From positions 337,334 to 401,333 of the forward strand of contig JAYRYC010000002.1 of assembly GCA_041917215.1 (NCBI GenBank): a stretch of 64,000 bases of DNA, read 5' to 3'. The position numbers and the translations under genes are program-made. Positions 4,549 through 32,118 of the stretch are shown in pieces. Below the pieces are notes generated by a model. It was not told the DNA's origin. It saw nothing but the letters and a program-made list of their open reading frames with translations, and searched no databases. Every line of letters starts with the position of its first letter. The first letter of the stretch is position 1. Source of the stretch: Tagaea sp. Lineage in GTDB: Bacteria > Pseudomonadota > Alphaproteobacteria > CACIAM-22H2.

Positions 4549-5046
4549 ATGATTCTCGTGGCCATCGGCGCCAATCTGCCCGGCAAGTTCGCATCGCCCG
4601 CCGATGCGATCGACGCGGCGTTCGGCGAACTCGACCGTGCGCCGTTGCGCGTCGCGGCGCGTTCGCGCATCTACGAAAGCCCGCCTTGGCCGCAGCCCTC
4701 GACCCAACCATGGTATGCCAACGCGGTCGTGCGGTTGGAAACCCAACTCGGGCCCGAAGCTTTGTTGGCGCATCTGCATGGGGTGGAGCGCGAATTCGGC
4801 CGGGTGCGGGGCGTACTCAACGCCGCGCGCACGCTCGATCTCGACCTGATCGACTATGACGGCAAGGTCCAGGACGGGCCGCCGATCCTGCCGCATCCGC
4901 GCATGGCGGACCGCGCCTTCGTCCTCTATCCGTTGGCCGAAATCGCCCCGGATTGGCGCCATCCGGTCCTGCACCGCCCGATTTCCAGCCTGATCGCCGG
5001 GCTACCCGCTGACACGGTCTGTCGGCCCATTCCGCCAAGGGCTTGA
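4549..5046 (+). CDS. folK: 2-amino-4-hydroxy-6-hydroxymethyldihydropteridine pyrophosphokinase (FolK)
   Basis: C-terminal 165 aa of ORF 3883..5046, internal Met MILVAIGANLPG (index 222). RIYESPPW...RTLDLDLIDYDG are HPPK motifs. The upstream part of the ORF is antisense to the NYN gene. Confidence 0.85.
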   Translation: MILVAIGANLPGKFASPADAIDAAFGELDRAPLRVAARSRIYESPPWPQPSTQPWYANAVVRLETQLGPEALLAHLHGVEREFGRVRGVLNAARTLDLDLIDYDGKVQDGPPILPHPRMADRAFVLYPLAEIAPDWRHPVLHRPISSLIAGLPADTVCRPIPPRA

Positions 5047-23020: not shown

Positions 23021-23107
23021 GCCCGCTTGATGGAATTGGTAGACATACAAGACTTAAAATCTTGAGCCCTTCCGGGCGTGCCGGTTCGAGTCCGGCAGCG
23101 GGCACCA
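23021..23107 (+). tRNA. tRNA-Leu: tRNA-Leu (anticodon UAA), CCA encoded
   Basis: Hand-folded. 7-bp acceptor GCCCGCT/AGCGGGC, D-loop with GG, anticodon stem CAAGA/TCTTG with loop CTTAAAA (TAA), long variable arm GCCC-TTCC-GGGC, T-arm GCCGG-TTCGAGT-CCGGC, discriminator A, CCA. Confidence 0.85.
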
Positions 23108-27064: not shown

Positions 27065-27134
27065 GACCCCGGCGCGGGGGCGCCGGGGCCCAAGTCCATA
27101 AAATGAATGACCCCGGCGCGGGGGCGCCGGGGTC
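27065..27134. repeat. two tandem copies of a 26-bp GC-rich hairpin (bidirectional terminator-like)
   Basis: GACCCCGGCGC-GGGG-GCGCCGGGG(C/T)C at 27065-27090 and 27109-27134, separated by an 18-nt AT-rich spacer. Lies between convergent genes. Confidence 0.5.
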
Positions 27135-29042: not shown

Positions 29043-30935
29043 ATGACCTCGACCAGTTCAGACGCGCCGGAAGGCGACAAACGCCTATTCGCGCTGGCCC
29101 TCGGTGCGATCGGCGTCGTGTTCGGCGATATCGGCACGTCGCCGCTCTACACGATGCGCGAGGCCTTCACCGGCCCGCACCCGATGGACCCCACGGTCGA
29201 ACACGTGCTCGGCGTGTTGTCGCTGATCGTGTGGACGCAGGTGATCGTCGTCACGCTCAAATACGTGACCTACATCCTGCGCGCCGACAACCGGGGCGAA
29301 GGCGGCATGTTCGCGCTGATGGCGCTGGCCATGCGCAAGGCGCCCGGGGGCACGCATCGCGGCGTGCCGATTCTGGCGGCGGGCTTGTTCGGTGCCGCGC
29401 TGTTCTTCGGCGACGCGGTGATCACGCCGGCGATTTCGGTGTTGTCGGCCGCCGAGGGCCTCAAGGTTGCCGCCCCCGATTTGGCGAATTTCGTCGTGCC
29501 GATCGCCTGCGTCGTGCTGGTCGCGCTGTTCGTGTTCCAGCGCAAAGGCACCGCGAAAGTCGGCGCGTTCTTCAGCCCGATCACCACGCTGTGGTTCGCG
29601 GTGCTGGGCGTGCTGGGCGTGATCTCGCTGATCAAGACGCCCGAAGTTCTGCACGCGCTGAACCCGTATTGGGGGCTGCATTTCCTCTATGCCGACGGGT
29701 TGCGCGGCTTTCTGGTGATGGGGGCGGTGTTCCTGGCGCTGACGGGGGCCGAAGCGCTCTACGCCGATATCGGCCATTTCGGAAAGCGCCCGATCCGTCT
29801 CGCCTGGATTTGCTTCGTCCAGCCGTGCCTCGTCTTGAATTATTTCGGCCAAGGCGCCTTGCTGATCCGCGAGCCCCAGGCGGCGTCCAACCCGTTCTAT
29901 CTGATGGTGCCGGATATCCTCCTGTATCCGGTCATCGCGCTCGCCGTCGCGGCGACGGTGATCGCGTCGCAAGCGGTCATCACCGGCGCGTTCAGCCTGT
30001 CGCGCCAAGCCGTGCAACTCGGTTTCCTGCCGCGTCTGGAAGTGCGCCATACGTCGGAAACCGAAATCGGCCAAATTTACGTGCCGCGCGTGAATTGGAT
30101 CCTGTGCGCCTGCGTGCTGGCACTCGTGATCGGTTTCCAGGATTCGAGCGCGCTCGCCGCCGCCTATGGCGTGTCGGTCTCGGGCGAAATGTGCGTCGCC
30201 ACGCTGATCGCCTATGTCGTCGCGCGCCATGTGTGGAACTGGCCGCGCTGGATCGCCGGCGGCATCACCATCGCGCTGCTGACGATCGATCTGACGTTCT
30301 TCTTCGCCAATCTCGCCAAGATCGTCGACGGCGGCTGGGTGCCGCTGGTGATCGGCACCGGCCTGTACATGATTTTCACGACCTGGAAACTCGGCCGGCG
30401 CATCCTGAACGAACGCCTGCACGAAGGCACGGTGCCGCTCGATCCGTTCATCGCGCGCATCAAGGACGGCAACCCGCCGCGCGTGTCGGGCACGGCCGTG
30501 TTCCTCACCGGCACGACGGACGGCGTGCCTTACGCGCTGCTCCACAACATGAAGCACAACAAAGTGCTGCACGAGCGCGTGGTGTTGCTGACGATCGTGA
30601 CCGAGCAGATCCCCGCCGTCGCCGACAAGGATCGGATCGAGGTGGAGGCGCTGGACAAGAATTTCTGGCGCGTCGTGCTGCATTACGGGTTCATGGAAGG
30701 GCCGAACATCCCGCGCGCCTTGCGCTTGGCGATGCCCTACGGCCTTAAATTCGATCTGATGGACACGTCGTTCTTCCTGGGGCGCGAGAATCTCGTGCCG
30801 AAGAACAAGCCGCTGATGCCGCGCTGGCGCGAGAAGCTGTTCATCGCGTTGTCGCGCAACGCCTACGCGGCCACGCATTTCTTCCGCATTCCGTCGAACC
30901 GCGTCGTGGAGTTGGGCACCCAAGTCGAGATATAG
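29043..30935 (+). CDS. kup: KUP/HAK/KT potassium uptake protein
   Basis: Start MTSTSSD (index 50 of ORF 28893..30935). GALGAIGVVFGDIGTSPLY N-terminal motif, 12 TM helices plus a cytoplasmic tail. Confidence 0.9.
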   Translation: MTSTSSDAPEGDKRLFALALGAIGVVFGDIGTSPLYTMREAFTGPHPMDPTVEHVLGVLSLIVWTQVIVVTLKYVTYILRADNRGEGGMFALMALAMRKAPGGTHRGVPILAAGLFGAALFFGDAVITPAISVLSAAEGLKVAAPDLANFVVPIACVVLVALFVFQRKGTAKVGAFFSPITTLWFAVLGVLGVISLIKTPEVLHALNPYWGLHFLYADGLRGFLVMGAVFLALTGAEALYADIGHFGKRPIRLAWICFVQPCLVLNYFGQGALLIREPQAASNPFYLMVPDILLYPVIALAVAATVIASQAVITGAFSLSRQAVQLGFLPRLEVRHTSETEIGQIYVPRVNWILCACVLALVIGFQDSSALAAAYGVSVSGEMCVATLIAYVVARHVWNWPRWIAGGITIALLTIDLTFFFANLAKIVDGGWVPLVIGTGLYMIFTTWKLGRRILNERLHEGTVPLDPFIARIKDGNPPRVSGTAVFLTGTTDGVPYALLHNMKHNKVLHERVVLLTIVTEQIPAVADKDRIEVEALDKNFWRVVLHYGFMEGPNIPRALRLAMPYGLKFDLMDTSFFLGRENLVPKNKPLMPRWREKLFIALSRNAYAATHFFRIPSNRVVELGTQVEI

Positions 30936-31204
30936 AGCGTGATTGGTAGGGAATGAATCGTCTGCGTTGGGTATCCGGCGTGTGCGATCCGCGCGGCACG
31001 ATCCGAAGCCGATAGTGGTTCTATCGGCGAGGATCGCAACAAAGCGGGCGCCCGCCGGAACCCAACCCGAAGGGCCGCGTTCTTTTGCGCCGCAGGGGCG
31101 TCGAAGGGCTCGCGCGTAGAACCACTACGCGACTTCGCCCTTCTCCTACCTGCATCGCAAAATTCCTGCGGCGCAGGCGGTCCATTCCCTACCAATCACG
31201 CTCT
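30934..31204. repeat. 271-bp nested inverted-repeat element (MITE-like or structured leader)
   Basis: Perfect 22-bp terminal IR AGAGCGTGATTGGTAGGGAATG (30934-30955) and its reverse complement (31183-31204). Inner 11-bp IR TGCGCCGCAGG (31086-96) / CCTGCGGCGCA (31165-75). Two local 7-8 bp hairpins (31008-31028, 31112-31131) whose 5-nt loops (UGGUU / AACCA) are complementary. Confidence 0.5.
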
Positions 31205-31231
31205 CAAAAACATATCGGGAGGAAAGTGCTT

Positions 31232-31879
31232 ATGAACGGTCCGGATCCGTCGCAAGTGTTTCCCTTCGGCAAGAACGCCAAGCACACGGCGTTTCTGAAG
31301 CCGCTTTTGGAAGCGAAGCCCACGCCCAATATCCGCGCGGGCGAATATTCCTATTATTCGGATTTCGACGATCCCACGCGTTTCTTCGACCGCAACGTCC
31401 GCTACAATTTCGGCATCTCGGGCGCCGAGCTCGTCATCGGAAAATTCTGCGCGATCGCGCACGGCGCCACGTTCGTGATGGCCGACGCCAACCACCCAAG
31501 CGTCGGCCCATCGACCTTTCCGTTCCCCGTGTTCGGCAACGGCTGGGCGGACGAAATGCCGGTCGAAAAAATGCCCGTGCCGTCCAAGCGCGACATCGTT
31601 CTCGGGCACGATGTGTGGATCGGGTACGAGGCGATGATCCTGCCCGGCGTCAAAGTGGGGACGGGGGCGATCGTGGGAGCCCGCGCCGTCGTCGCCAAGG
31701 ACGTGCCGCCTTATTCGGTGGTCGTGGGCAATCCCGCGCGCGTGGCCAAGCGCCGCTTCGACGAGGCGACGGTCGAGAAGCTGCTGGCACTCGCCTGGTG
31801 GGATTGGCCGATCGACCGGATCACCCGCGCCATTCCGTCGCTGCTGGCCGGAAAGGCGGATGACCTTCTGGCGTGCTGA
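31232..31879 (+). CDS. xenobiotic acetyltransferase, Vat/CatB family (hexapeptide-repeat)
   Basis: Start [10 protein letters not shown] (index 49 of ORF 31085..31879), SD GGGAGG upstream. [63 protein letters not shown] are typical of streptogramin-A/chloramphenicol acetyltransferases. Confidence 0.8.
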
Positions 31880-31932: not shown

Positions 31933-32118
31933 ATGTCCGGTTTGCAGTCGTGGATTATTGGGATCATCGCCGCGCTGGTGGGGATCGTGGCGCTGTTTTT
32001 CGCCTCGGCCAGCCATGGCAGCGAGATGTATCCGGTCGCGCTGGTCGTCTTCGCGCTGATCGTCTTGTTCGAGTTCTGGCTGATCAAGCGCCATTTCGAC
32101 GCCCAGGAATCGCACTGA
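31933..32118 (+). CDS. small hypothetical membrane protein
   Basis: 61 aa from MSGLQSWII, two hydrophobic helices. Confidence 0.3.
   Translation: MSGLQSWIIGIIAALVGIVALFFASASHGSEMYPVALVVFALIVLFEFWLIKRHFDAQESH

Follow-up and report, generated by a model that had tools for sequence, protein, structure and literature searches.

Does a large palindrome standing directly in front of an acetyltransferase gene control that gene, or is it a guest? We asked this of a 64,000-nucleotide (nt) stretch of the genome of the alphaproteobacterium Tagaea sp. (assembly GCA_041917215.1, contig JAYRYC010000002.1, positions 337,334 to 401,333; hereafter the window), in which an inverted-repeat element of about 270 nt separates kup, a potassium uptake gene, from a gene for a Vat/CatB-like acetyltransferase (hereafter vat). 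The preliminary description of this locus had offered two readings, an insertion resembling a MITE (miniature inverted-repeat transposable element) and a large structured 5' leader that gates vat. Comparing strains and copies at other loci, we conclude with a probability of about 0.9 that the window element is a recent insertion of a member of a mobile family, not a regulator of vat. The family is dispersed, insertion-polymorphic and non-coding, has defined ends and a conserved fold, and is selfish enough to disrupt a gene.

The element ranks first among the inverted repeats of the window and has a GC content of 62%. As first read it spans 30934–31204 (271 nt), which corresponds to a 269-nt element plus one outer A-T pair. 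Its terminal arms (AGAGCGTGATTGGTAGGGAATG; 30934–30955 and 31183–31204) form a perfect 22-nt inverted repeat, a match found in 0 of 100 dinucleotide shuffles, and extend to 33 nt at 91% complementarity. Inside are an 11-nt repeat pair (31086–31096 and 31165–31175) and two apical hairpins, GCCGATAG-TGGTT-CTATCGGC on the left (31008–31028) and CGCGTAG-AACCA-CTACGCG on the right (31112–31130), with mutually complementary loops. The kup stop codon TAG (30933–30935) has A30934 as its second base, and the vat ATG at 31232 lies 27 nt past the element. All these repeats and hairpins, as well as the start inside the kup stop codon and the distance to vat, had been placed correctly in the preliminary description.

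Structure prediction for the plus-strand RNA gives a three-way junction with a minimum free energy of −170.9 kcal/mol, compared with a shuffle mean of −106 (z = −13.1); the minus strand reaches −169.7 kcal/mol. A predicted basal stem of ~38 bp bears two inner hairpins of roughly 100 nt each. The apical hairpins hold reverse-complementary 11-mers symmetric about the centre at 31069, and inverted palindromic units (TAGTGGTTCTA and TAGAACCACTA, 103 nt apart) are likewise symmetric about the element centre. Beyond this, residual dyad symmetry is weak (z = 2.6), and similarity between the inner hairpins is not significant in either direct (z = −1.2) or reverse-complement (z = 1.9) comparison, so that we reject the idea that one is a duplicate of the other. 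The complementary loops, taken earlier for a kissing-loop geometry, are a product of the dyad symmetry, which sets the apices 51–52 nt either side of the centre. The sole informative loop substitution in the family, TGGTT to CGGTT in the copy on contig L049 (see below), lacks a compensating change, and a rod-like fold (−143.4 kcal/mol) is 27 kcal/mol worse than the branched one. Neither kissing loops nor a rod is therefore the selected fold. A coding role for the internal open reading frames (ORFs) was also rejected: these are frameshifted in the other complete filled allele, L003, or have only non-synonymous differences between copies.

Who carries the element? We gathered kup-vat alleles by exact look-up of the Vat protein, which returned independent assemblies ~98.5% identical to the window; the cluster to which Vat belongs sets the organism beside 'Tagaea sp. 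CACIAM 22H2' in the family Rhodospirillaceae. Complete filled alleles are the window and L003, a JGI assembly whose copy (4705–4972) differs at 10 of 271 nt. Partial filled alleles, which hold the right part of the element, are six Logan contigs (L004–L007, L009, L011). Recurrence in the independent L003 assembly, whose flanks are 98.6% identical, and in part in the six Logan contigs, rules out an assembly artefact. The element is missing from L008 and L010, which encode the identical Vat protein, and from L039, whose Vat differs by one residue; in all three, kup and vat are 27 nt apart. Alleles ~93% identical (P0121, P0131, P0126) are all empty with spacers of 26–27 nt. The element is equally missing from the sister lineages, where the spacer is 30 nt or 3 nt: P0002, at 85% protein identity, and P0003 and P0004, both at 78%. 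Altogether, kup-vat spacings of only 3–30 nt occur in some 45 contigs, drawn from the Tagaea-like (Rhodospirillaceae) species complex and from three sister lineages, and among the alleles compared the element is confined to one sub-lineage. It entered the 26–27-nt kup-vat spacer in that sub-lineage as a recent gain. All filled-allele Logan contigs stop within the element (window equivalents 31081, 31118, 31133 and 31148), three of them at exactly 31081, and the empty-allele contigs cross the junction. Hairpin-related coverage loss or strain variants explain these ends just as well as other copies would, and the ends are no proof of multiple copies.

The same alleles bear on the proposal that the element is a dedicated, riboswitch-like 5' leader gating the acetyltransferase. 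Its position immediately upstream of vat and its very stable predicted fold are what make that proposal attractive. The element is, however, missing at every orthologous kup-vat junction outside the one sub-lineage, including those with an identical Vat, and other members of its family flank unrelated genes. An Rfam search with the element returned no match at the gathering threshold; the best sub-threshold match was MIR1437, a plant, MITE-derived family, at 26.7 bits vs 168. We consider a dedicated leader scarcely credible. The short spacers of the other alleles indicate that the ancestral pair was tightly linked and rule out an evolved vat leader. In sister-lineage contigs L014–L021, L044 and L045 the kup-vat gap is just 3 nt (TGA TCG ATG), in support of an original arrangement with translational coupling, later interrupted by the element; the ancestral state was probably a tightly linked, translationally coupled kup-vat pair.

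Copies at other loci came from an unconventional query. The element was translated in six frames, and the concatenated translations, searched in a protein database, matched P0135, a 505-aa protein of the metagenome-assembled genome (MAG) GCA_016850285.1, whose own kup-vat site is empty (L040/L041). Here a second copy, on contig L046, interrupts a peptidoglycan-binding protein gene; the frame is equal before and after the copy, and the copy brings in-frame stops that cut off the C-terminal peptidoglycan-binding part. With P0135 as the query, a HMMER search covered 1.84 billion representative proteins. Uninterrupted orthologues are P0137 and P0149 (...KPPGFDYHWG...), and the empty site, in L048 DNA, reads GGGC TTC GACTAT where the filled one reads GGGC AA[269 nt]CG GACTAT. 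The search with P0135 also led, through P0158, to a third copy, which is on contig L049 and adjoins an aldolase gene. Copies thus lie at three unrelated loci in three genomes, two of which are clearly polymorphic loci. On L049, 10 nt that match the right terminal repeat of the window type (ACCAATCACG) are found at 829–838, some 30 nt downstream of the copy, and may be a solo-end remnant or chance.

The six-frame protein search succeeded where terminal-repeat scans missed the family because gene callers had read into two of the copies. The terminal repeat is, moreover, the variable part of the family, so scans with the window's repeat say little about copy number. Such scans found no match in JGI metagenome contigs (19-mer, two-arm pattern) or in viral contigs. 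A 24-mer from the conserved core did not occur in viral contigs, plasmids and phages held no BLASTN match to the whole element, and a single minus-strand frame as a protein-database query also matched nothing; a profile built from four sequences detected no further copy in the 276 kb examined. A full-text literature search for the repeat sequence returned unrelated primer matches only. Scans for an autonomous insertion sequence with matching terminal repeats, which used the window copy's variable repeat and covered plasmids and phages, viral and JGI metagenome contigs and species-representative genomes, found none. The alphaproteobacterial MAG MFD04651.bin.1.176 has, in an intergenic region (L001 2679–2697), a solo stretch of 19 nt identical with the right terminal repeat, with neither element body nor partner arm; one such match is about the chance expectation in 596 Gb, though it falls in the right bacterial class.

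How the element enters DNA can be read at its junctions. The nearest empty alleles match the window fully from −301 to +163 around the site, the junction excepted. Three changes at the end of kup occur only in filled alleles: synonymous ones at 30929 and 30932, and the stop change TAA to TAG at 30935. The best-matching empty spacer is of the L022 type, GTCGAAATCTAAAAAAACATATCGGGAGG, from which the filled allele, GTCGAGATATA[269 nt]TCAAAAACATATCGGGAGG, differs by a net +270 nt. The preliminary description had suggested comparing the kup-vat intergenic regions of relatives for a target-site duplication, and none is seen there: GAAATCTAAAAAAACATATC becomes GAGATATA[element]TCAAAAACATATC. No duplication is seen between L046 and L048 (GGGC TTC GAC to GGGC AA[element]CG GAC) or at L049 (flanks TG and TA). 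The junctions read TA-element-TC in the window, AA-element-CG in L046 and TG-element-TA in L049, and no motif is common to the left flanks (ATA, CAA and CTG). We rejected duplication models of 2, 3 and 4 nt (TA, TNA, CTAA), each of which needs at least four extra mutations. At both loci having an empty allele, the window and L046, the net gain is +270 nt, and a few target bases are replaced. At the kup end, the substitutions at 30929 and 30932 convert AAUCU to GAUAU (30929–30933), the exact complement of AUAUC at 31212–31216, and this pairing extends the predicted stem of the window element across a 7-nt bulge; selection, templated mutation or carry-over from a donor are possible origins.

Junctions of this kind raise the question of whether a transposon is needed at all. 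Recombination, template switching or, at breaks, capture by end-joining might instead spread a structured DNA segment, aided by its hairpin, with homologous recombination moving it between strains. Small replacements in place of duplications fit such a process. So do the linked changes, three within the final 9 nt of kup, which occur only with the insertion in flanks that otherwise equal the nearest empty alleles. The filled right flank also matches the L022-type spacer of a lineage ~7% diverged and the outer flanks match L010, which suggests a mosaic. On the other hand, three independent insertions end within 1–2 nt of the same tips and two share the +270-nt gain, which argues for defined ends; and structure and tips are conserved across lineages at 80% sequence identity, which implies selection for the ability to propagate. 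We therefore think it quite unlikely that the copies arose without a transposon.

What the copies conserve points to the fold. Core identity between loci is 81–90% (conserved core GGCGTCGAAGGGCTYGCGCGTAGAACCACTACGCG), and the outer 21 + 21 nt are only 57–76% identical with their complementarity kept. Conserved over 11 nt are the family tips, GAnyrTGwTTG ... CAAwCAyrnTC, and almost invariant are the apical hairpins with ~38 nt around the right one. The consensus three-way junction has standard pairs in 98.3% of pair cells. Compensatory double changes occur at 17 of 103 pairs, a number that 0 of 500 shuffles reach and that slid controls (0–2) do not approach; nine lie in the basal stem (9 of the 30 pairs of helix 1) and eight in helices of both inner hairpins. 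Covariation across homologous copies, which the preliminary description had named as a check, is thus present, and the family retains its three-way-junction fold through compensatory changes. The junction mini-hairpin is invariant and so carries no information for or against structure. The fold also appears to have a preferred strand. Where only one side of a pair has changed, the plus strand shows G-T at 12 positions but A-C at only 3 (one-sided p = 0.018), the plus strand folds better than the minus strand in each copy (by 1.2, 10.2 and 12.8 kcal/mol), and at 3 of 3 loci it runs in the direction of the host gene.

These patterns also bear on how far the element is a MITE in the usual sense, that is, an insertion sequence with an internal deletion that a DDE transposase moves in trans by acting on double-stranded terminal repeats, with target duplications that are very short or eroded. 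Terminal repeats of 22–33 nt, small size and no coding capacity fit, as do the A-rich spacer as target and the dispersal over unrelated loci; prokaryotic MITEs may number 1–22 copies per genome (PMC10969869). The outermost 11 nt (GAnyrTGwTTG) are kept across copies, and it is these conserved tips that make this a serious rival. Several observations do not fit. At neither locus with a known empty site is there a duplication, and at L046 AA...CG stands in place of a conserved codon, TTC. The repeats, their tips apart, are conserved less well than the core (57–76% vs 81–90%) and yet co-vary, and compensatory changes extend to the inner hairpins, on which a transposase that binds the repeats would put no constraint. 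To these come the strand asymmetry of the wobble pairs and a parent insertion sequence that the scans did not find. A classical MITE is thus improbable, though the strongest of the alternatives. Of the earlier MITE-like reading, mobility stands, supported by polymorphism among ~98.5% identical strains, absence from sister lineages and copies at two unrelated loci; the textbook form does not, since target-site duplications are lacking and conservation is lower in the outer repeats than in the core.

The reading we prefer is a folded single strand. Compensatory evolution where a repeat-binding transposase would not constrain the sequence, strand-biased wobbles and the lack of target duplication lead us to infer that the fold of one strand is necessary for propagation. 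Whether mobility is of this single-strand, structure-dependent kind we regard as an even bet. Propagation would then rely on the folded plus strand, as single-stranded DNA (ssDNA) or RNA, and an enzyme supplied in trans would recognise that strand at the near-invariant apical hairpins and conserved tips. Such recognition would be closer to that of REPIN/RAYT or IS200/IS605-type systems than to a DDE transposase acting on double-stranded terminal repeats, and the two mutually inverted apical hairpins would play the part of two REP units. With moderate confidence, we place the family as previously undescribed, ~270-nt non-coding elements of the foldback MITE or REPIN-like kind in Tagaea-like Rhodospirillaceae. 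More speculative, and in our view doubtful, is that they are a new type of structure-dependent mobile element: a three-way-junction single strand (ssDNA or RNA intermediate) that integrates in one orientation relative to transcription or replication, makes no target duplication, replaces 2–4 target bases for a fixed +270-nt gain and is recognised via its two invariant apical hairpins rather than its terminal repeats, with the help of some enzyme or mechanism that has so far not been connected with elements of this sort.

Several observations weigh against this picture of a mobile, REPIN-like family. The window copy is single in the 64-kb window, and the three loci are in three different genomes. 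An exact 18-mer of the window terminal repeat, run against 185,579 species-representative genomes, gave two solo, chance-level matches (L001, L002), both lacking a partner arm. No RAYT-like gene was found in the 276 kb examined, a tiny sample searched with an approximate E. coli RayT sequence. At 270 nt and low copy number the elements are unlike typical REPINs, which are ~100 nt long, extragenic and present in tens to hundreds of copies, and the conserved 11-nt tips would equally suit a classical transposase. The covariation comes from only three independent lineages and could reflect concerted evolution, in which the arms of the palindrome are homogenised as DNA. The asymmetry between strands is modest and was counted on a structure predicted with plus-strand RNA rules. 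Finally, neither an intrinsic terminator nor a sigma-70 promoter is predicted in or beside the window element.

What might the element do to its hosts? It could be a functional mobile non-coding RNA (ncRNA) module, acting as an mRNA stabiliser, processing site or small RNA and kept by the host for its effect on neighbours including vat. Such a role would suit the conserved structure, the wobbles favoured on the plus strand, the co-orientation with the host gene at all three loci, the placement of two of three copies at or just past a stop codon, and a vat Shine-Dalgarno sequence left free. It is hard to square with polymorphism within the species, where most strains are without the element, with a copy that disrupts a conserved gene, or with the lack of an Rfam family and of any predicted promoter or terminator. 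Between the window and L003 the interior has diverged by 3.7% and the mostly coding flanks by 1.4%, about the neutral rate for the interior, which argues against a strongly selected host function. We rate a host-kept module as very unlikely.

At kup-vat the element is most likely a passenger in the operon transcript. The predicted basal stem of ~38 bp would loop out 270 nt, place the kup stop codon beside the vat ribosome-binding site and not occlude the Shine-Dalgarno sequence of vat. If vat expression changes, the change would therefore be a side effect rather than evolved control. The 22-bp perfect duplex is also a plausible RNase III substrate, as in Correia elements.

Table 1. Features of the kup-vat locus in the window and further copies of the element family.
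Feature	Sequence	Position	Strand	Description
kup (potassium uptake), 630 aa	window	29043..30935	+	upstream host gene
kup end, two last codons and stop	window	30927..30935	+	GAG ATA TAG; empty alleles all GAA ATC TAA
Basal stem, 5' arm	window	30934..30966	+	22 nt perfect, 33 nt at 91%
Mobile element proper	window	30935..31203	+	delimited by inverted repeats, 269 nt, tips GAGCGTGATTG ... CAATCACGCTC
Left inner hairpin, helices 2-4	window	30967..31066	+	apical hairpin 31008-31028, loop TGGTT; compensatory pairs in helices 2 and 3; apex almost invariant
Junction mini-hairpin CCGAAGG, two pairs	window	31067..31073	+	invariant in family
Right inner hairpin, helices 6-9	window	31074..31171	+	apical hairpin 31112-31130, loop AACCA; ~38 nt around apex are the family's most conserved block
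Basal stem, 3' arm	window	31172..31204	+	
Right junction and residual spacer TCAAAAACATATC	window	31204..31216	+	AAAAACATATC matches L022-type empty allele
Shine-Dalgarno GGGAGG (31217-31222) and vat/CatB-like acetyltransferase gene (ATG 31232; 215 aa)	window	31217..31879	+	intact, outside element
Second copy	L046	7293-7561		core 88% identical, 32-nt arms at 94% complementarity, 205-nt arm spacing as in window, same apical hairpins
Third copy	L049	526-795		terminal inverted repeats present; 4 nt past stop of HpcH/HpaI aldolase gene; found via P0158, a spurious ORF over the copy

Window Kup is a genuine potassium transporter and exceeds its NCBIfam cut-off, and an exact look-up of the protein returned no record; the protein downstream of the element is Vat/CatB-like, yet scores under the NCBIfam Vat cut-off (223.7 vs 300 bits). 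Within vat, five differences from L003, L008, L010 and L039 fall in 16 nt (31495–31510) of otherwise nearly identical sequence, which looks like a short recombination patch. A 61-aa ORF 54 nt past vat (31933–32118) possibly encodes a conserved small protein, since gene calls include it in all relatives, even in the sister lineages at 78% identity; it has no Pfam match. Elsewhere in the window, a tRNA-Leu(TAA) at 23021–23107 is the sole Rfam or ARAGORN match. Two identical 22-nt GC-rich hairpins (CCCCGGCGC-GGGG-GCGCCGGGG; 27067–27088 and 27111–27132) lie 44 nt apart between convergent genes and could be REP-like repeats or a bidirectional terminator pair; the window holds no further copies of them.

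The locus carries several lessons. It corrects the tempting reading of a large structured leader controlling a resistance-type acetyltransferase, in favour of a selfish insertion, and adds a structurally unusual family of non-autonomous bacterial elements from an uncultured Rhodospirillaceae lineage. A small family that is polymorphic within a species permits a natural comparison of filled and empty alleles for the effect of a 270-nt foldback on a translationally coupled pair. With its covariation, strand-biased wobbles and lack of target duplication, it is a useful test case for hairpin-dependent, single-strand transposition outside REP/RAYT. As a matter of method, six-frame translation against a protein database found this family where terminal-repeat scans had missed it.

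Among known systems, REPINs, REP doublets that form hairpins and are mobilised by the RAYT or TnpA-REP tyrosine HUH transposases, are similar in being non-coding and in having two inverted palindromic units around a spacer that can form separate hairpins or one long stem. They too keep their fold through compensatory changes and make no target duplication, and folding in ssDNA or mRNA has been proposed for them (PMC3116915, PMC3733652). The family differs in length (270 nt vs about 70–120 nt), in its three-way junction with a long basal stem, and in its low copy number, with a single copy in 64 kb and no detection by the terminal-repeat scan in representative genomes of relatives. One copy is in an operon and one in a gene, whereas REPINs are extragenic. 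It also appears to lack the conserved GTAG or CGTC tag at the stem base (PMC3733652): GTAG is present in the stem of the right apical hairpin (CGTAG...CTACG) and in the window terminal repeat, though not at the stem end, and it is not kept in the repeats of the other copies.

Single-stranded hairpins, compensatory changes and the lack of duplication are common to REPINs, whose fold in ssDNA or mRNA is kept by such changes (PMC3116915), and IS200/IS605-type elements (PMC3116915, PMC3733652). PATEs, which derive from IS200/IS605, offer a mechanistic model in their strand-specific, hairpin-dependent mobility without target duplication. They have subterminal hairpins and insert 3' of a fixed tetra- or pentanucleotide, whereas the ends of our element pair over >30 nt and its left flanks share no motif. 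Classical prokaryotic MITEs of types I and II resemble the family in size (<500 bp), terminal repeats, lack of an ORF, stable predicted transcript fold and insertion polymorphism (PMC10969869). Here, by contrast, flanking direct repeats are absent, the sequence is GC-rich (62%) rather than AT-rich, and the repeats are less conserved than the core.

The best models for a possible effect of the window copy on kup-vat mRNA are the Correia elements (CREE/NEMIS) of Neisseria and the ERIC elements of enterobacteria, which are likewise small, palindromic or bounded by repeats, located between co-transcribed genes and folded into long stems in mRNA. RNase III cuts Correia elements in mRNA at their terminal repeats, and ERIC alters mRNA stability (PMC10969869). 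Correia elements differ in having TA duplications, an IHF site and hundreds of copies, and ERIC in being a simple imperfect palindrome of 127 bp; neither has sequence similarity to our family, which lacks a duplication and has a branched fold with covariation. Rickettsia palindromic elements and intragenic REPs also place palindromes inside coding genes, and the L046 copy keeps the frame (+270 nt, or 90 codons). Unlike Rickettsia palindromic elements, that copy has in-frame stops and splits its gene, and there is no sequence similarity and a different host clade. Among small palindromic non-autonomous mobile elements, then, the combination of a branched fold with covariation, no target duplication and a fixed +270-nt gain is unusual.

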